DNA of 58,905 nt from a virus (IMGVR_UViG_3300001528_000136:1-58905); one strand, 5' to 3'; shown: positions 4,156 through 31,920, numbered from the stretch's first letter. Program-made: numbers and translations. Notes: generated by a model not told the origin, from the letters alone.

Positions 4156-4501
4156 ATCTTGTAATTTAGAGTTATTATACTATTGTGATTTATTGTAAAT
4201 AATTAGAGTAATTTAAAATAAATTATAATTGTTCTCACTCTGAGTTCTAACCTCAGTACAATAGTTTTATTTAAGTGAGAATTTTTGTTTTATAATATAT
4301 TATTAGTTGACCTATACACTAAAAGGTTTTTAATCCTTAATTAATTATGATACTAAATTATAATATATAAAGTGATAAAAGTTGGGACTAGTACATAGCC
4401 AAACTGGTCAAAAACGAATGATATTGGGTAAGTAGCAAAAAGCAGTCACTTACTCCATTGCCATTTTCAGCTCGCTAGAATGTAGTATTATGTCCATTAA
4501 C

Positions 4502-4748: not shown

Positions 4749-5315
4749 TTAAGCTACAAAATCATAATGATAGAGAGCTTTCTCAATCAATTTGCTATGG
4801 TCTGGTTGACCATCCTTGAAACCTGTAGTTTTCATTGGAGTCTTAGAAGTAATCTTGACCTTCTTACCTGCCAATGCCTCAACACCCTTCTGAGTATCAC
4901 TCTTCACAATGTTGCCATTAGCATCCTGGTCAGCCTGACCACGAGACTTCAAGAACTCAGTAACTGCTGTTCCTTCTGGATAGACAACCTCCCCTGTACG
5001 ATACAAGTTATGGTCTTTATCCTCATCCCATACAAAGATAGGATTCTGGAATGTAGTTGGGAACCAGTTGATAGCACGTGTTGTACCATCAGGAGCTTGA
5101 ACTTCAATAACCATAAACTCGTAGTCATTACCGTTGAACTCTCTGGAACCAATTCTCTGACCCATTTCGGATACTGTTGGAAAGATGAGAATATCACCTT
5201 CATTCAAAGCTGCACCACCATCAAAAACTGGCTTCATACCATTAGTGAATGCACCAAGTCCCATCTTCATTGAACCATCAGAACTGTTTGCGTTGATTCT
5301 TTCAATAACTGTCAT
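4749..5315 (-). CDS. hypothetical protein (188 aa)
   Basis: ORF track; AGGAG-like leader; no in-frame TAG. Confidence 0.85.
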   Translation of the reverse strand: MTVIERINANSSDGSMKMGLGAFTNGMKPVFDGGAALNEGDILIFPTVSEMGQRIGSREFNGNDYEFMVIEVQAPDGTTRAINWFPTTFQNPIFVWDEDKDHNLYRTGEVVYPEGTAVTEFLKSRGQADQDANGNIVKSDTQKGVEALAGKKVKITSKTPMKTTGFKDGQPDHSKLIEKALYHYDFVA

Positions 5316-8552: not shown

Positions 8553-8966
8553 ATGAAAGAAAATATAGACGAATTAATGACAAAACTAATGTCTGAACAA
8601 GATATACAAGAATTAATAACAGCTTCAGACAATAATAAAGATTATAGCTATAATAAAGATGGATTAAAGGTAGAAATTAAACATACAGATAATTCAAAAT
8701 CTATTGTTATTACTTATGATAATCCAACAGAATCTATAAAAAAAGATTTTATAGCTAATTTAGAAAATATTAGTGATAATGATTTTATAGATATATGTGA
8801 GTTTATTGGAAAGGACGAATTGAATCGTATCCAAGAATTAGTAGATGCAAATACTGTAGAAGAAATTAAGGATGGTATTAATATCTTTAAAAGAAATGTC
8901 TATGATTATGTGGATGATAAAATTAAGCATCTAACTAATCTTAGAACATATATATCTAAGTTTTGA
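8553..8966 (+). CDS. hypothetical protein (137 aa, acidic)
   Basis: ORF track; no in-frame TAG. Confidence 0.8.
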   Translation: MKENIDELMTKLMSEQDIQELITASDNNKDYSYNKDGLKVEIKHTDNSKSIVITYDNPTESIKKDFIANLENISDNDFIDICEFIGKDELNRIQELVDANTVEEIKDGINIFKRNVYDYVDDKIKHLTNLRTYISKF

Positions 8967-9027: not shown

Positions 9028-9099
9028 TCTCTTCTGGTGTAATGGCTAGCACAGGTGGCTCTAACCCACTTAGTCAGGGTTCGAATCCTTGGGGGAGGA
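9028..9099 (+). tRNA. amber suppressor tRNA (anticodon CTA), probably Gln-charged
   Basis: TCTCTTC-TG-GTGTAATGGCTAGCAC-A-GGTGG-CTCTAAC-CCACT-TAGT-CAGGG-TTCGAAT-CCTTG-GGGGAGG-A. Anticodon CTA at 9061-9063. The TGGTGTAATGG D-arm and weak 1:72 pair are tRNA-Gln-like. Confidence 0.93.
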
Positions 9100-9120
9100 C
9101 TAAATAATAAATAAAATAAT

Positions 9121-9888: not shown

Positions 9889-10509
9889 TTAACTAAATCG
9901 AACAGCAGCACTATCTGGTCCAATATGAAAATGCTTTCCAGTAGCTCCTGTTTTTGCCATCATCTAAGGAGTAGTCTCATCTAATATTCCCCAATTTCTT
10001 ATTTTAAACCATTCTCTTACATTCTAATTATTAGCTAGGATATTTCTGAGATTAGCAAATGCTGAATCACTTTTATCTACTTTACCATTAACTAGTGGCT
10101 AAATATCATAAGCCATTGGATGTCCATGCTCATCTATTTTATTATGATTAGACTATTTACCAGACTTAGTTTTACCTCCTCTAAATCCATTCTTTCCTCT
10201 ATAACCAGATGAAATCTAAATAGGAAGATTGTATGTCTTAACTAAATCTTCAAAGCTCATATTAGCTAAGTTACTATTTAGCTACTAGTTATTATCCTAA
10301 TTAGTTAATGGCTTCCAACCAGCAAATCCCTAATTAGATTTCTAACTAGACTATTTAATTATAGGTAACTAAAGAGTGTCTAGAAAATCTTCAACATTGT
10401 CCTAAATATTCTCATCATTATTTATATAACTAGTCTAATTAGGTTGTTCTATATGGGGATAATTAGTTACATGTACTGGTTTGTAACTTACAAATAAATC
10501 ATTTACCAT
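9889..10509 (-). CDS. peptidase M15-like (Zn DD-peptidase fold) protein (206 aa, TAG=Gln)
   Basis: Motifs ISSGYR, SNH..., AYD and HFHIG in the C-terminal half; open only if TAG is read through. Confidence 0.7.
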
Positions 10510-10828
10510 ATTTAATATATTTAAACTAGTTATAATGTTTTCTACTATTTAAATAGTCTAGATTAGACTAATTATAATAAGCTTCTCTTTCAAATGATAA
10601 AGTCTTGTAAGCCATCCATGTATTTCTATATATAATTAGTCTGACTAAATATTCAATTATATACCATAAATAGAAACCTATCCATAATAACTCTTGTCCC
10701 TATTTAGTATGTATAGTTTCATGATTTATATCTATTTCATTTAACTATTTTCTACAGAATAATATTCCAAATAGATTTATACATTTAAATCCTTTTGGAG
10801 GTAATATGCTGTTTATAATTATCTTCAT
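10499..10828 (-). CDS. HExxH-containing (zincin-like) protein (109 aa, TAG=Gln)
   Basis: MKIIINSILPPKGFKCINLFGILF...HETIHTK(Q)GQELL...SFEREAY. Confidence 0.7.
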
Positions 10829-10943
10829 ACCATTTATTTATTTGATTTCTCATATTATCTAATATTTCACTCGTGATAGTAATTTCATCAGGATGCTCTA
10901 TATAATAGAGCAGTCCTGCACCAAATTTAATAGGTTTCTACAT
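10785..10943 (-). CDS. hypothetical protein (52 aa, TAG=Gln)
   Basis: M(Q)KPIKFGAGLLYYIEHPDEI...; overlaps both neighbours. Confidence 0.45.
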
Positions 10944-11058
10944 AATCATCTAACTAAGTACATCTAATTAAATATCTATCCCATAACTACTAATCTCTTT
11001 TATTTACAAAGTCGAAAAACTCTTGTAATTCTTTTAACTATACATTTATATCTTCCAT
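10927..11058 (-). CDS. hypothetical protein (43 aa, TAG=Gln)
   Basis: MEDINV(Q)LKELQEFFDFVNKRD(QQ)LWDRYL...; starts 1 nt after the upstream stop. Confidence 0.5.
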
Positions 11059-11059
11059 A

Positions 11060-11377
11060 TTAAATAATTCCTCCAATTCCAAATGTTAAGTGATGATTCT
11101 TCTTTAAATCCTTGGTCTTAAACCATCCATTCTCTGTAATAGCTCTATGTCCATTAGGTTTATGTACTGAACCACCATCTTCATGCTTCCATTTCTTAGC
11201 ATTCTAGGCAAATATAGCTCTCTTTCTAGTTAGGGAATTCTTACTATGAGTCAATTCTTCAGTAGTTTTACCTGTTCTCTTTTTAATCTCAGTAAATTTT
11301 CCTTCATTTTCTTTCTTAATGTGTATTCCCGAACCATTAGCTAAGATAGGAACACCAAATACTTTAAAACTGTTCAT
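11060..11377 (-). CDS. basic phage protein (105 aa, TAG=Gln)
   Basis: Contains IHIKKENEGKFT...TRKRAIFA(Q)NAKKWKH, a motif I recognise from crAss-like phage proteins. Confidence 0.7.
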
Positions 11378-24929: not shown

Positions 24930-25293
24930 CAAGACATCTTACAAACTAGCTATAATCGCATTAAAATATGTTCCATTTATTACTGCTAGTATAATGTATA
25001 TTCATGTTATTTTAGTGCTCTTTGCTAAACCTTTATTTATAGCTGAAATGTTTGCAGGATGTTCTATATTACCTGCTGTAATAATGTATTTAATAGCACA
25101 TGTATTAAGGTTTTGCTGGATACATAAAAGCTTAATAGTTTATACAGCATTAATAGATGGATGTATTACTTATAATAGATATTTTGAATTTAATAGTATG
25201 GAAATACATGCATGGGGAGCTTTTGTAGTTGGAACCTTTCTAGTATTCTATACCATAATATTTAAATTTTTATGGAAGAAATTGCTTGGGTAA
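24907..25293 (+). CDS. membrane protein (128 aa with TAG=Gln)
   Basis: Track ORF 24994..25293 extends to ATG 24907 through one TAG; several TM helices. Confidence 0.65.
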
Positions 25294-26618
25294 GTGGAAG
25301 ATATAGACCCCTAGTTAAGGGAGCTTTTCTAAATACCCTACGAGAATTAAAAACATTAATAAAGGAAATATCAAGAATTAATGTCTATGTATCTGAAGAT
25401 ACTATCAGAGTTATTGATAGATATGGTAAGGAGTCAATAATAGACATAGCTATGTAGTCAGAAGTAGTTAATTTAACTGTTACCTCTGATGAACCATCAG
25501 TTAAAGTCTCTGGGCTTAAATTAAGTGTCTATATTAATGGCGGAAAAACTCCTATATATTATACGACTGATAGTGATGGTAAAGTAATATTTTTAGTACC
25601 TAGAGGTAGTTATTATTAGATAGAATTTCCAGAATATGCTAAAGCTTAGCCTATAACTCCAATTGGTTATACTGCAATATTAAGTAGCAGAGATATAGAT
25701 GTTAAATATTTACCTTATGATGAAGCTACTAGTGAAAAGGTAATAGTTAAGGTTAATAAGGTAAAAGATGGCACTAAAACAGCATGGGAAGATAAAGAAG
25801 TAAAGGTAACTGTTGATAAAAAGACCACTTCTTATAAAACAAACGAATCTGGAGAATATATAATTTGGATTCCTCTGGGGAAAGAATATACTATATAGGT
25901 AGATAATTCAGATGGATACTATGTAGATTTTAGTAGAAATAAGAGAACATTTACTGCAAAAGTTGTATAGAGACAGGTGGTATATAATGCAGGAATTTAT
26001 CTTACAGGAATATTTCTTTTAAATAATTAGGGAGAACAATACAATATAGAGGATTGGAAGAAATTAGGATATACTGGTGATGATGTAATAGGTATTAGAA
26101 TAAGTACAAACATATTAATGGCTAATAATTCAACTTATGTAATACCTATGAAAGTATTATTGGAACATAAGTCAGTAAATTATCAATGGTGTAATTAGAA
26201 TGTATTATTTGAATCTATATCTAGTAATGGTAATAATACTTCTGACCCTTATTATTATAATGGAGAAGGTGCTAATGAATTAATAAGAGACGAAGCACAA
26301 TAGAGAGCTTTACTAGTACCTGCATTCACTTATGCTTATAGTTAGATATTTGAAATTAATGGGGAGTAGTATCATGGTTATATTGGTTCTATAGCTCAAT
26401 GGTCGGCTTGTATAAATAATATGGTTTATATAAGAGATAATATTATAACTGAACTATGGGATGCTAATACTGCTTCTACTATCTATAATTGGATTTGTAA
26501 TAGTTGGAAGTGGACTAGTTGCTAGAATAATACCGCCTACGCTTGGGGCTACGGCACTGGCACGGGCAACTACGGCAAGGGCTACGGCTACCTAGTAGTT
26601 CCGTTTTGCGCTTCTTAA
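25272..26618 (+). CDS. DGR target protein 1: putative receptor-binding protein with beta-sandwich domains and a C-terminal CLec-like domain (448 aa, TAG=Gln)
   Basis: The C-terminus WKWTSC(Q)NNTAYAWGYGTGTGNYGKGYGYLVVPFCAS* is encoded by VR1; paralog of 29740..31236. Confidence 0.88.
26532..26612 (+). repeat. DGR variable repeat VR1
   Basis: 81-nt ungapped match to the TR with 20 mismatches, all at TR adenines (15 G, 3 T, 2 C). Confidence 0.95.
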
Positions 26619-26624
26619 TCTCAT

Positions 26625-26672
26625 TCAGCCCTTTCCCTCTTTCCAAGTCCGCAAGACTGTGGAAAGGGCTGA
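26625..26672 (+). other. hairpin/cruciform downstream of VR1 (putative homing recognition element)
   Basis: TCAGCCCTTTCC...GGAAAGGGCTGA with an inner AGTC-CGCAA-GACT hairpin. Confidence 0.65.
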
Positions 26673-26763
26673 TATTTTTATTAATTTATAGTAATTCTAT
26701 ATTAACTTTTGTTTTAGATTATTAATTATTTTAGATTAAACTTTTAACTTAGACAATCCCATA

Positions 26764-27162
26764 ATGGCACTAACTAAAGACCTCTAGATTTATAAAGATA
26801 ATTATGATTTATGTAAATTATTTTTATAGTATAATAAGTAGGTAAGTAAACTTCTCAGATATGGTCAATATCAAATTATGATTGATAAATCATTTAACTG
26901 TTTAGATTTATTAAGAAGAATAAATAGTGATTTTAAAACTAGAGAGTATTACTTAGAGTAGTATTTGTTGTTACTAGACGATATTTATAATCGTGTTAGT
27001 TTGTTCGTGGAGACTGGTTATATAGAGGTAAAGAAAGGTACTAATATGATTCATTTAGTATCTGGATTATAGAAGTAGGCTACGGGTTGGAAAAGTTTTT
27101 CACGCAAACGCCAGAATTGTAGAGGCAACGCCAATACAAGTGAGCAGTCATTATCTAAATGA
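26764..27162 (+). CDS. avd: DGR accessory variability determinant (Avd-like four-helix bundle, 132 aa, TAG=Gln)
   Basis: L(Q)IYKDNYDL...RYG...K(Q)ATGW pattern; directly upstream of the TR and RT; six in-frame TAG. Confidence 0.8.
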
Positions 27163-27236
27163 CAAGGGATACTTTCACTAAATCTTATCCTGAAATAAGA
27201 CGTGAACAAATCTCATCAAAGATTAAAGTGTCAGAA

Positions 27237-27317
27237 ACCGCCAACGCTTGGAACTACAACACTAACACGAACAACAACAACAAGAACAACAACTAACTAG
27301 TAGTTCCGTTTTACGAT
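27237..27317 (+). repeat. DGR template repeat (TR)
   Basis: ACC GCC AAC GCT TGG AAC TAC AAC ACT AAC ACG (AAC)4 AAG (AAC)3 TAA CTA GTA GTT CCG TTT TAC GAT: 11 AAC codons and 34 adenines, between avd and RT. Confidence 0.95.
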
Positions 27318-27326
27318 TGTCAATTA

Positions 27327-28454
27327 ATGACTTTAAAAATGCGTGAATGGATAATGATAGAATAGGTTTATCAAGCTTATGATGATTGTTGCAAACGTAA
27401 GAAATCTACTTACGGATATGTAAAATATCATTAGAACTATATAATGAATAATTTATAGTTATACAAAGATTTAAATAGTATGTAGTATAAAATAGGTATG
27501 AATAGAACATTCTGTGTTACTAGACCTAAATTAAGAGAAGTATTTTGTGCTACTTTCAGAGACCGTATAGTACATCATTTATTAGCCAATAAATTTATTG
27601 ACATAATAGAGTCCGAACTTACTGATTCAGCTTTTGCTTGTCGTAAGGGTAAAGGAACACATTATGGTATTAAATATATAGAAACTGCTATTAAAAGAGT
27701 AAGTGATAATTATACTAAAGAAGCTTGGATATTAAAATGTGATTTATAGGGATTCTTTATGAGTATAGACAGAAACTTATTATTTAATATTATAAATGAT
27801 GTAATTAGAAAGAAATATCATGGTGGAGATATTGAAAACTGGTTATGGCTCTGGAAAACTATAATTATGAATGCTCCTGAAAAAAATTGTAAAAGGGTAG
27901 GTAATTTAGACTTATGGAAAAATTTACCAGCAAATAAATCTCTATTTACCAGTAATGGCAAAGGATTACCTATAGGCAATTTGTCTAGTTAGATATTAGC
28001 TAATTTACTATTATCTAGATTAGATAATTTTATATTAAGTAAAATAGGTAATGGAGGTTATGGTAGATATGTAGATGACTTTATTCTAATACATAATAAT
28101 AAAGAATATCTTAAATAGTTAATTCCTTAGATTAAATCTTTCTTAAAAGATAAACTAGGACTTACTTTACATCCTAAAAAGATATATTTATAGAATGTAT
28201 AGAAAGGAGTATCATTTATAGGAGCTTATATTAAGCCTAATAGAATATATGTGAATCACAGAATTATAAATAATTGTAAAGAAACATTTAAAGAATATGA
28301 GAATGCTGACCATTTTGTTTAGTAGATAAATAGTTATTTTGGTATGTTAAAACACTATAATACTAAAAAGATGCGATGGGAACTCTGGAAAGAAATGCCT
28401 AAGAAAGGTATATACTGTGTTAATCTAAATAAAATAAAGAAATTAAATGATTAA
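27327..28454 (+). CDS. DGR reverse transcriptase (375 aa, TAG=Gln)
   Basis: Motifs PKLREVF..FRDRIVHH, FACRKGKG, LKCDL(Q)GFF, GLPIGNLSS(Q), RYVDDF and LHPKK; about 12 in-frame TAG. Confidence 0.95.
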
Positions 28455-29022
28455 TTTTTGTTATACAAATATTCCTATAAATTTATATAAAGAGAAAGTA
28501 GATATGGGATTTACTTCTGTATTACACTTCGACCCTATTAAATAGGAAGGTGATACCTATTTATGTGTTGAGTGTACCATACCTAATGATCTTTTAGATT
28601 AGGCAGAGACTCTTTATAATGAATGGAAAACTAAATAGGAATAGTTAAAACTTAACTATGTTAAGAATGAAAAAATAAAAGAGATTGAAGAATATGATAC
28701 TAGCACTAAGGTTAATGGTTTTTAGTTAAATGGAGTTACTGTATGGCTAGATAAAGCCACTAGAGTAGGTCTTATGAATAGTACTACCATAGCTAAAAAT
28801 ATGGGTAATGAGAATACAACTCTTTGGTTAGGTGATATTAGAATAGAAGTTAATTGTGATAAAGCTATTCAACTTCTATCAGCCCTAGAAATGTATGCTC
28901 TTCAATGTTTTAATGTGACAGCTGCACATAAAAAGACCATAAGCGAATTAACTAATATCAAAGAAGTAGAAGATTTTGATATAACAGTAGATTATCCAGA
29001 TTAGTTAGTAATGTCAATCTAA
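28447..29022 (+). CDS. DUF4376-like putative fibre-associated protein, paralog 1 (191 aa, TAG=Gln)
   Basis: YDTS..VNGF...WLDKATRVGLMNS...LEMYALQCFNVTAAHK...YP. Confidence 0.75.
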
Positions 29023-29534
29023 TGCTTTGGTTAGGAATAATTTCAGCTATAGTATTAATATCTTATCTATGTATAACTATATATAAGTTTGGATTACCAA
29101 ATATGATTAGTGATACATATTATTAGTTAAAAGAAAAAGGATGGATATTTTCTAGTGTAATGCTATTTATAGCATTATCTATGTTAATAGCTATACTAGA
29201 TACTAACTAGGGAATACAATGTCTGGCTTTTTTAGGATGCGCGGGACTTGCATTTGTAGGATGTGCTCCTAATTATATAGTCGATTATAGAATACATAAG
29301 ACAGCAGCTATAATAGCTAGTATAGGATGTGTAGGATGGAGTTGTTCTATTAATTATTGTATAACTTTGATTATATCTATAATATATTTAATGTATTTAT
29401 TATCAATTAGGGAACCTCTCAAAGTTAAGGAACAGTATAAACACTTAATTTCTAAATCTCATCCTTGGTATTTTTTAGAATTAGCTGGATTTTTAGACAC
29501 TTATATAACATATTTTTCAATATGCTACATTTAA
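29022..29534 (+). CDS. multi-pass membrane protein (170 aa, TAG=Gln)
   Basis: GLPNMISDTYY(Q)L, FVGCAPNY and IHKTAA; several TM helices. Confidence 0.7.
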
Positions 29535-29755
29535 TTAAAATAAATAAGAGAGATATTTATGGGCTAATAGGCTGGTTTATAGTTAGTACAGTTATCAGCA
29601 TATTAGCTTTACCTGTTATGATAGGCAGAGAAATTTATTAGTGGAAACATTATAATTTATCTGCTTTAGAATGGGAAGATATAATTAGATATTCAATAGT
29701 AATCTTATTAGGTTCTATAATTAATTACTAGTTAATACAATGGCTGATACAATAA
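29522..29755 (+). CDS. small membrane protein (77 aa, TAG=Gln)
   Basis: MLHLIKINKRDIYGLIGWFIVSTVISILALPVMIGREIY(Q)W... Confidence 0.6.
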
Positions 29756-31236
29756 ATGACAATATAATTAATAAAGCTAAGATAAAAGATATAGATTATG
29801 AAATAGGGGCTAAATATGATTCTTCTGGTAATGAAATAGAAACTACTTATCTAAAAAAAGAAACAGTAGATAATACTGTAACTGCTTGTGAAACTTCCAC
29901 TTAGGCAGCTACTGAAGCTACTGCAAAAGCTATTACTGCTACTAATGATGCTATAACTGCTACTGGAAATGCTGAAAACGTAAATGCAGTTTTAGAAGGT
30001 AATGTACTTACAATTACAAACCGTTATGGGGTAAGAGAATCTATTAATCTTACGGATTCTGATGAACATATTACCATAAATCTCACAACTACTGTAGAAG
30101 ATGCTAGTATGAAGGGATTAATTATTAATGTATTTATTAATAATGGTACTGATGTTTTATAGTATATATCAGATGATAATGGACAAGTAGAATTTACTGT
30201 TCCTAAAGGAGCTACTTATAAAGTAGTATTTCCCTATGTAAAAAATTGTAATATACCTAATCCTGTATAGCATATAGCTAGTGTTGGTAATAGAATTATT
30301 GATATTTCTTATGATCTTTCAGTATATAAGTATGAATAGGTTATTGTTAATACTAAATAGGAAAATGAAGATGGTAGTGTTATAGCTATTATTAATAAAG
30401 AAATTACAGTAACTATTAATAAAGAAGATACTATATATAATACTGATGAAGAAGGTAATGTTACTTTCAATGTACCTATTGGAACTACTTATAAAGTAAG
30501 TACAGAAACAGCTGAGGGAACTTTTGAAGCACATGGTCGTGATACATTTACTAGAGTTGCTTCTGCAACATCTTTTCATATATCTTTTTATTTTCAATAT
30601 TATCAAAGTGGTATATGGTTAGTAGATAATCAAAATAAAATATATACATTTGACGAGTGGGAAGAAAGTGGTAATGATTCTTCAACTTTAGCATTTATTA
30701 AATTAACTTCTAAAGAAACACAATAGTATCAAGGTGATATATATATTTCATTTGAAACTATATATAATTGGGGACAATATGGTTCTATGCAATGGTGTAA
30801 TCAAAATGTATAGTTTAATAATATGCCTTTAAATGGTATGGATAAAAATAATAGTTTATGGGGAACATTTGCTTATAATGGATTATTAGCTACCTAGACA
30901 ATTATAGCAGAAGCCACAGAACGCAGTTTATCTGTACCAGCAGCTACTAAATGTTACAGTTATACAGTAGAAAATGGCAATAAAACATATTAGGGGTATT
31001 TACCTACAGTATATCAATGGATATTATTTATTAATAATGTAGATAGTATAATAATGGCAGCTTAGTATAAATATCCAGAAATAGTATCTACTGTAAACAC
31101 TTTTAAAGGAAATAAATGGAGTTCTACACAGCAAAGTACCGCCAGCGCTTGTTACTACAACACTGGCACGAGCTACTTCAGCAAGAGCTACGGCTACCTA
31201 GTAGTTCCGTTTTACGCTCCCCTCTTACCCTCTTGA
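29740..31236 (+). CDS. DGR target protein 2: putative receptor-binding protein (498 aa, TAG=Gln)
   Basis: Paralog of target 1 (QWCNQNV, EA..R.L.VPA); the C-terminus WSSTQQSTASACYYNTGTSYFSKSYGYLVVPFYAPLLPS* is encoded by VR2. Confidence 0.88.
31138..31218 (+). repeat. DGR variable repeat VR2
   Basis: 81-nt ungapped match to the TR: 15 mismatches at TR adenines and 1 at a G (TGG to TGT). Confidence 0.93.
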
Positions 31237-31307
31237 CCCATTCATCTCTTTGCTTTCGAGCAAGGATGTTGCAAGGAGCGGAGCGAACGTAGCATTGAAT
31301 GGGTCAA
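31233..31307 (+). other. hairpin/cruciform downstream of VR2
   Basis: TTGACCCATTCA...TGAATGGGTCAA with an inner TTGCT-TTCG-AGCAA hairpin. Confidence 0.65.
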
Positions 31308-31338
31308 TCTATTGTTATTGAATTAATGAATTTATAAC

Positions 31339-31920
31339 ATGAAAATAAATTTTATAAAAACATTTATATCTAATGACGATTTTTCTGAAAAAGAAATATT
31401 AGGTAATAAAGTTATAATGAGATTTGATGCAGTTAAAGAAGAAGATGGTTATTATTGTGTAGAATGTTCTATTAATAAAGAAGATTTTAATGAAACTTTA
31501 ATAACTAAATCTTATAATGAGTGGAAGAGTAAACTTGCTTCACATTAGCTATTTCAAGCTAAAAATGCTAAAATAGCTGAAATTGATTTCTATGACCAAT
31601 CTTCAGCAGTGAATGGATTTAAACTTAATAATTCTTAGGTGTGGCTTGATAAGGCTACTCGTGTAGGCTTGATGAACTCTACTAAAATAGAAAAAGATTT
31701 AGGAAATGAAACAACAGATTTATGGTTAGGTGAATTACATCTTACTTTAAATTGTGATTTGGTAATTAATATATTAAGACAATTAGAATCTTATGCTTTA
31801 AAATGTTTTAATATAACTGCTCAACATAAGAAAGAAGTAAATGCTTTAACTACTATAGAAGAAGTAACTACTTACAATATAACTAAAGATTATCCTGAAC
31901 AATTAACTATAAATATCTAA
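31339..31920 (+). CDS. DUF4376-like protein, paralog 2 (193 aa, TAG=Gln)
   Basis: Track fragments 31339 and 31639 are in frame; WLDKATRVGLMNST is shared with 28447..29022. Confidence 0.8.

Follow-up and report, generated by a model that had tools for sequence, protein, structure and literature searches.

The stretch analysed here, IMGVR_UViG_3300001528_000136:1-58905, is a viral sequence of 58,905 nucleotides (the window) that represents the first third of a phage genome of 186,905 nt. Between positions 25272 and 31307, a diversity-generating retroelement (DGR) was found, in which one template repeat (TR), the accessory gene avd and a reverse transcriptase (RT) are associated with two target genes, each ending in a variable repeat (VR). 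A previous reading made from the sequence alone, hereafter the sequence-only reading, had proposed this avd-TR-RT cassette with two paralogous targets, which was borne out both by a new gene call under translation table 15 (TAG read as glutamine) and by the 31% identity between the targets. Under table 11, the region 25272-31307 gives only fragments of 60-99 aa, and reading TAG as Gln merges the fragments found from 25272 to 31920 into seven tightly packed plus-strand genes. The locus is very probably a canonical active DGR placed among the late tail-fibre genes of a crAss-like, Zeta-like phage (complete genome, 187 kb) whose late genes use TAG for Gln, and the TAG codons of the RT and avd genes would correspond to ordinary late-gene usage. 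The components of the DGR and the suppressor tRNA of the phage are listed below.

25272-26618, plus strand: DGR target 1 (variable protein), 448 aa with 11 TAG, an open reading frame (ORF) when TAG is read as Gln
26532-26612, plus strand: VR1, coding for the C-terminal ~27 residues of target 1
26764-27162, plus strand: avd (accessory variability determinant), 132 aa with 6 TAG and a basic C-terminus
27237-27317, plus strand: TR, non-coding, 81 nt including 34 A, with 11 AAC codons and one TAA in the target frame
27327-28454, plus strand: DGR RT, 375 aa, or 371 aa from the ATG at 27339, with 12 TAG
29740-31236, plus strand: DGR target 2, 498 aa with 10 TAG, paralog of target 1
31138-31218, plus strand: VR2, coding for the last ~27 residues of target 2
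9028-9100, plus strand: amber-suppressor tRNA with anticodon CUA (ARAGORN; Rfam RF00005, 47.7 bits)

VR1, TR and VR2 were first marked by a three-copy repeat family and then aligned in exact register. The TR differed from VR1 at 20 positions, all of them TR adenines (20/20, hypergeometric p 3e-10), and from VR2 at 16 positions, 15 of which were TR adenines (hypergeometric p 2.7e-6), the remaining one being a G>T change; on this realignment, the mismatch counts of the sequence-only reading proved exact. The non-adenine positions of the TR were retained in 47 of 47 cases in VR1 and in 46 of 47 in VR2. A search through the whole 187-kb genome revealed neither a third or cryptic VR nor any other TR-like copy.

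The same specificity was observed in a close relative, L008, which is part of a 186,681-nt contig recovered from a metagenome scan and shares ~90% nucleotide identity and the same gene order with the window. In L008, TR-VR mismatches fell on adenines in 17 of 17 and 18 of 18 cases. The TRs of the two phages are identical except at 2 of 81 positions, where the two VRs of each phage bear the base of their own TR; when one phage is compared with the other, 17 of the 81 positions are different in VR1 and 20 in VR2. Since the VRs mirror the TR alleles in each phage, information must have been transferred from TR to VR after the two phages diverged, and in a concerted manner. The 3′ segment of TR and VR is invariant and poor in adenines, and a difference of TR-GAT versus VR-GCT was fixed in all four VRs of the window and L008. 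Moreover, 10 of the 12 TAG codons of the RT are common to the window and L008, which implies that the RT behind this post-divergence homing was already laden with amber codons. These comparisons argue that an RT recoded with 12 amber codons works under natural conditions.

The VRs were also found to be hypervariable among relatives in the wild. Other assemblies yielded orthologs of target 1 that are 76-91% identical to it, several of them on contigs of ~173-190 kb; their mean column identity was 90%, yet residues 419-440 were hypervariable. In two target clusters built at 90% identity, one of which has 642 members, the variable columns were concentrated in the last ~40 residues, where up to 7 residue types were seen among 10 sequences. 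It was also observed that residues 409-414 (W-I-x-x-x-x-K-W) of the target 1 orthologs vary, upstream of the segment covered by the 81-nt TR; this variation reflects either a longer TR in some relatives or ordinary diversifying selection on a loop. Other searches did not enlarge this set of relatives: the phage collection gave no matches to the 6-kb locus by megablast or to target 1 by tblastn, exact scans for the 3′ core of the VR/TR in IMG/VR and in metagenome contigs gave 0 matches, and an RT-based scan of IMG/VR found nothing closer than 26%-identical loci.

The identity of the RT was supported by matches to RVT_1 (E 2.1e-19) and phrog_1423 (E 1e-82). Its best relative of solved structure was the Bordetella bRT (8ub7; E 3e-33, 119 bits), with retron and group II RTs reaching at most 43 bits, and the NCBIfam models for group II, retron and Drt enzymes all stayed far under their cut-offs. 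This protein is the only RT in the 187-kb genome and harbors the motifs IGNLSSQ, within GLPIGNLSSQ, and YVDD. Its glutamines are encoded by 12 TAG, one CAA and no CAG, and the TAG at codon 222 (27990-27992) specifies the Q of GLPIGNLSSQ, which aligns with the Q of the bRT motif IGSLTSQ. These codon counts, the amber-encoded Gln at 27990, the six TAG of avd and the position of the tRNA at 9028 were all as the sequence-only reading had given them. Translation of the RT probably starts at the ATG at 27339, judging from relatives that begin at M5, and the first TAG is found at codon 9 or 13 depending on the start used. Residues 1-123 of Avd matched phrog_3206, annotated as ‘Avd protein of DGR’ (E 2.4e-10), and in L008 the same interval between target and TR is occupied by a 132-aa gene with 6 TAG.

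In order of components, a locus of standard code was found to be equivalent. L009 (JFJP01042996.1, 2026-4705) contains a target with its VR, an avd-sized ORF, a TR of 120 nt and an RT 43% identical to that of the window, and it is fully open under table 11. This arrangement, open in the standard code and in the same order, indicates that the TAG codons of the window represent a derived adaptation to a recoded genome.

The two targets share 31% identity over 425 aa (E 6e-58). In the AlphaFold2 model of target 1, the N-terminal part is formed by two transthyretin/CnaB-like beta-sandwich domains, which matched pilin/CnaB structures at Z 10-11, and it is followed by a C-terminal domain (aa ~240-448) with a fold like that of C-type lectins (CLec). 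Since Foldseek and VIA searches with the whole model were swamped by matches to the N-terminal beta-sandwiches, the C-terminal domain was folded alone (residues 240-448; pLDDT, the predicted local distance difference test, 95) and searched separately. Its top match in the VIA wide search was the C-terminal domain of 4eps (Z 13.2, root-mean-square deviation 3.6 A over 193 residues), followed by the DUF1566 domain of Legionella Lcl (8q4e; Z 8.9); many C-type lectins were matched at Z 5-6, and the DGR variable proteins TvpA and Mtd were found at Z 5.4 and 5.1. The formylglycine-generating enzyme (FGE) was among the matches as well. Foldseek with the C-terminal domain alone gave no match at E <= 0.001, Pfam detected no domain in the C-terminal halves of the targets, and a profile search of the PDB gave nothing useful. 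The CLec fold, which the sequence-only reading had mentioned for the ligand-binding ends of DGR targets in general, was thus recovered here at the level of structure, and in this model the final strands of the CLec-like domain come from the VR, as in known DGR targets.

The structure 4EPS corresponds to the fimbrial protein BACOVA_04982 of Bacteroides ovatus, which, as target 1, presents beta-sandwich domains ahead of a CLec-like tip; it differs from target 1 in being a cellular pilus protein with 14% identity to the variable domain of the target. Pilus tip proteins of this type are themselves DGR targets in Bacteroides. At Z 13.2, 4EPS clearly outranked both Mtd and TvpA. This match hints at a Bacteroidales host and at a pool of CLec tips common to pili and phage fibres.

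The meaning of TAG was established from its position in conserved proteins. At RT positions 44, 141, 222 and 289, all of them TAG in the window, Q was found in 89-111 of 111 homologs (80-100%; background 2.4%). Comparison of the window with L008 revealed swaps of TAG with CAA or CAG in RT, avd, target 1 and a neighbouring gene for a DUF4376 protein. The presence of Q at homologous positions of the RT together with these swaps indicated that TAG means Gln.

These results bear on the notion that the DGR is a decayed relic, in which the TAG codons would be nonsense mutations and the TR-VR differences would be old. Such decay could be suspected from the RT, which under table 11 breaks into fragments of at most 83 aa, and from the one non-adenine mismatch of VR2. 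However, the same in-frame TAG codons occur in every late gene, at conserved Gln positions; almost all non-adenine positions of the TR are retained in both VRs in spite of the low identity between the targets; the VRs of each phage mirror its own TR alleles; and no truncation of RT, avd or targets is seen in relatives. Neither frameshifts or TAA/TGA stops in the RT nor non-adenine drift between TR and VR was seen. A relic is thus extremely improbable.

The recoding is not restricted to the DGR. A contiguous plus-strand late block, from 13.8 to 110.8 kb of the genome, comprises 60 ORFs that are all recoded, including those of terminase, portal, fibres and giant proteins. These 60 genes contain 941 in-frame TAG, which represent 57% of their Gln codons and 3.06 TAG per 100 codons. 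The tRNA(CUA), placed in a TAG-free stretch upstream of this rightward block, is the sole amber-suppressor tRNA in the genome, and every late gene, the DGR included, would need it for translation. By contrast, in a minus-strand block that holds polA, NrdD and an ATPase, TAG is absent from the ORFs or restricted to their ends or to the part before the likely start, with two exceptions detailed at the end of this text.

It was proposed in the sequence-only reading that hypermutation can only begin once the phage suppressor tRNA is active, so that the code switch would time receptor diversification and render the element inert in a genome of standard code. The first part follows logically, since neither RT nor Avd can be made without read-through, but this dependence is generic and equally affects all 60 late genes; the inertness after transfer is likewise true, and equally true of every late gene of this phage. 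The idea of a timer specific to receptor diversification was not supported: the RT contains 3.2 TAG per 100 codons, which equals the block mean (3.06), and both avd (TAG in 6 of 10 Gln codons) and target 2 (10 of 22) are average for it.

A stronger form of this idea, in which the amber codons of RT and avd would constitute a dedicated regulatory and containment device that times hypermutation and blocks function after transfer, agrees with some features of the RT. The catalytically relevant Gln of the SQ motif is encoded by TAG in the window and L008 alike, and with the first TAG so close to the start, the products of leaky translation would be useless. The TAG share of the RT (12/13) is also the highest among the 52 late genes that have 6 or more Gln codons (binomial p 0.007), but this value fails correction for 52 tests, the L008 RT uses 11 TAG and 3 CAA, and TAG and CAA are freely swapped. 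In addition, the neighbouring late genes are all equally dependent on suppression. A location in late operons of tail genes is, moreover, usual for the DGRs of phages, including that of BPP-1. In their study of code-15 gut phages, Borges et al. (bioRxiv 10.1101/2021.08.26.457843) reported preferential recoding in lysis genes and a late-gene timing model, without any mention of RT or DGR. A dedicated device is, for these reasons, unlikely.

The interpretation of the locus as a canonical DGR with ordinary late-gene codon usage must be weighed against some observations that do not favor it. The high TAG share of the RT is one of them, and this gene may have a mild extra TAG bias. Avd gave no sequence match in Pfam or PDB and was recognized by its PHROG profile alone. 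No GC-rich initiation of mutagenic homing (IMH) element of the BPP-1 type is present. Lastly, the DGR appears to be currently or very recently active as judged from a comparison between genomes.

By homology with the Bordetella BPP-1 system, the canonical DGR proposed here would operate as follows. The avd, TR and RT segments would be transcribed along with the late genes, and translation of Avd and RT would have to await the tRNA(CUA) of the phage. Together, RT and Avd would then form a complex that produces cDNA from the TR RNA, with random misincorporation opposite adenines. This cDNA would replace both VRs, which encode the C-terminal CLec-like tips of the two paralogous, fibre-like targets, and up to ~15 codons would be diversified per putative receptor-binding face. 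The TAG codons of RT and avd would have been acquired over a long residence in a recoded genome, and the DGR would need the suppressor tRNA just as much as terminase, portal and fibres do.

This dependence would vanish if the host itself decoded TAG or had no RF1 activity, in which case there would be no need for the phage tRNA and no switch. Against this possibility, TAG is confined in the early and replication genes, apart from the two exceptions mentioned, to positions close to the ORF end or before the likely start, which is consistent with its use as a stop there, and the phage encodes its own tRNA(CUA). Furthermore, a standard code is what published surveys find in the hosts of such recoded gut phages (Borges et al.; PMC12386605). 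It was observed that several early genes seem to end in TAG and to present TAA or TGA a few codons on (for example 139958-141508, 160312-160941 and 177505-177903), and these second codons appear to act as a back-up stop once suppression starts. The lack of TAG within early genes, together with its use at the end of several of them, implies a standard-code host, and decoding of TAG by the host is very unlikely. On the preferred reading, translation of the DGR would rely on the tRNA supplied by the phage.

The TR itself contains an in-frame TAA in the target frame, at 27294-27296. Both VRs of the window carry TAC at this site (26589-26591 and 31195-31197), and those of L008 carry TTA and TTC; the L008 codons of TR and VRs at this site are 4958-4960, 4252-4254 and 8800-8802. 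Each residue found at this position among relatives (Y, L, F, C, W and Q) corresponds to a T-N-N codon; Q, seen in one relative, must be encoded by TAG if the codon is T-N-N. It was considered that the TAA could belong to a non-transferred IMH* segment, as both VRs of the window bear TAC, but this was rejected, since the TTA and TTC of L008 revealed that the codon is mutagenised. The codons observed at this site place the stop within the mutagenised zone. An unmutated copy of the TAA would truncate the target by its last eight residues, and the A-to-G product, TAG, would be a sense codon (Gln) only under code 15. This site may therefore be the sole point at which a real interaction between the DGR and the genetic code is possible. 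One could extend this to a scenario in which the DGR and the private code are co-adapted, the RT being TAG-rich in order to be kept at a low and strictly late dose, with code 15 gating the mutator and enlarging or filtering its output. If true, the code would both gate the mutator and shape its productive output, but such co-adaptation is improbable.

Compared with the BPP-1 DGR (mtd-avd-TR-brt), the locus presents the same order of target with VR, avd, TR and RT, the same adenine-specific TR-VR differences, a VR at the C-terminus of a CLec-fold protein (the receptor-binding protein in BPP-1) within a tail module, and the common RT motifs IGxxxSQ and YxDD. It differs in having two targets instead of one, in lacking the (G/C)14 IMH, in the in-frame TAA of the TR, in the reading of TAG as Gln in all its proteins and in a gap of only ~20 nt between the TR and the RT start. 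BPP-1 is a 42-kb temperate podovirus, in contrast to the 187-kb phage of the window, which is of the crAss-like lytic type. In relation to this short gap, the distance from the end of the TR to the conserved RT start codon (27317-27339) means that any priming spacer RNA similar to that of BPP-1 must overlap the RT coding sequence.

The closest published systems are those of Zeta crAss-like phages, gut phages of 175-190 kb that encode polA, ribonucleotide reductase and tRNA(CTA), as the phage of the window does. Babkin et al. (2025) found DGRs in the structural block of 18 of 43 Zeta genomes, with CLec-tipped tail fibres as targets, and reported amber suppression in seven DGR RT genes, which hampered DGR detection (PMC12386605). 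Among those Zeta phages, Avd and several TR/VR pairs were described only in the opal-recoded Lera and ct1yV3 (PMC12386605). The genome analysed here is not among the 43 of that study, and it differs from them in combining Avd, two VRs derived from one TR and amber recoding. Therefore, amber-containing DGR RTs are already published for this group (PMC12386605), and the present locus is a clean further example rather than a new mechanism.

The genome is recorded as complete in IMG/VR, with 30.1% GC, 12 tRNAs and direct terminal repeats. Besides its size of 187 kb and these repeats, it harbors polA (phrog_17) and NrdD, and its large terminase subunit (TerL) and portal match crAss-type PHROGs. TerL is 25-28% identical to that of classified Crassvirales and 43-47% identical to that of two unannotated gut phage records. 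At 25-28% TerL identity, the family placement (Zeta, proposed Echekviridae) is tentative, and the phage is described here as Zeta-like only.

Late-gene recoding with TAG as Gln (code 15) has reportedly been described in gut phages, by Peters and colleagues in 2022. The phage of the window shares with the code-15 gut phages of Borges et al. the standard-code early genes, the TAG-rich structural and lysis genes and the phage-encoded suppressor tRNA, and it differs from them in that its late block carries a DGR as one more passenger. The late timing proposed for expression of this DGR corresponds to their hypothesis.

The value of the locus is more practical than conceptual, as no new regulatory principle is involved. 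DGRs of recoded phages are invisible to gene callers and DGR finders that assume the standard code, and surveys of hypermutation in gut viromes must, as a result, undercount them. The locus offers a complete example of such an element, with Avd, one TR and two VRs, accompanied by a relative that proves TR-to-VR transfer. RT activity could serve as a sensitive read-out of amber read-through and the locus as a potential test bed for suppression under code 15, and it could also be used in studies of receptor-binding diversification in large crAss-like phages.

The remaining features of the locus are the following.

26625-26672, plus strand: hairpin with a 12-bp stem followed by a T-rich run, just 3′ of VR1
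28447-29022, plus strand: DUF4376 protein a (PF14301, E 4e-6; phrog_1807, tail fiber), tail-fibre-associated partner of target 1
29022-29534, plus strand: ORF of 170 aa between both target modules, conserved in L008
31339-31920, plus strand: DUF4376 protein b, partner of target 2, 52% identical to DUF4376 protein a

The paralogy of the targets and the 52% identity of their DUF4376 partners indicated that a module composed of target and DUF4376 gene was duplicated. The avd-TR-RT cassette splits the first copy of this module, between target 1 and its DUF4376 partner, and the order is identical in L008. Family searches in Pfam and PHROG gave no match for the 170-aa ORF, and a scan for promoters and terminators performed no better than on shuffled sequences. 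The hairpin 3′ of VR1, whose sequence is conserved in L008, folds as DNA at -13.4 kcal/mol (z -4.85), with 0 of 200 shuffles as good, and its counterpart 3′ of VR2 is weaker (z -2.7). The hairpin after VR1 may mark the DGR target site, and it may also, or instead, terminate the target gene.

Both exceptions to the distribution of TAG lie on the minus strand. The first is an ORF of 431 aa (182625-183920), with 17 TAG spread throughout its length, which is truly recoded within an otherwise TAG-free early block. The second, at 9889-11377, comprises ORFs of 206 aa (14 TAG) and 109 aa (4 TAG), and these TAG-dense ORFs lie directly downstream of the suppressor tRNA and do not belong to the main late block.

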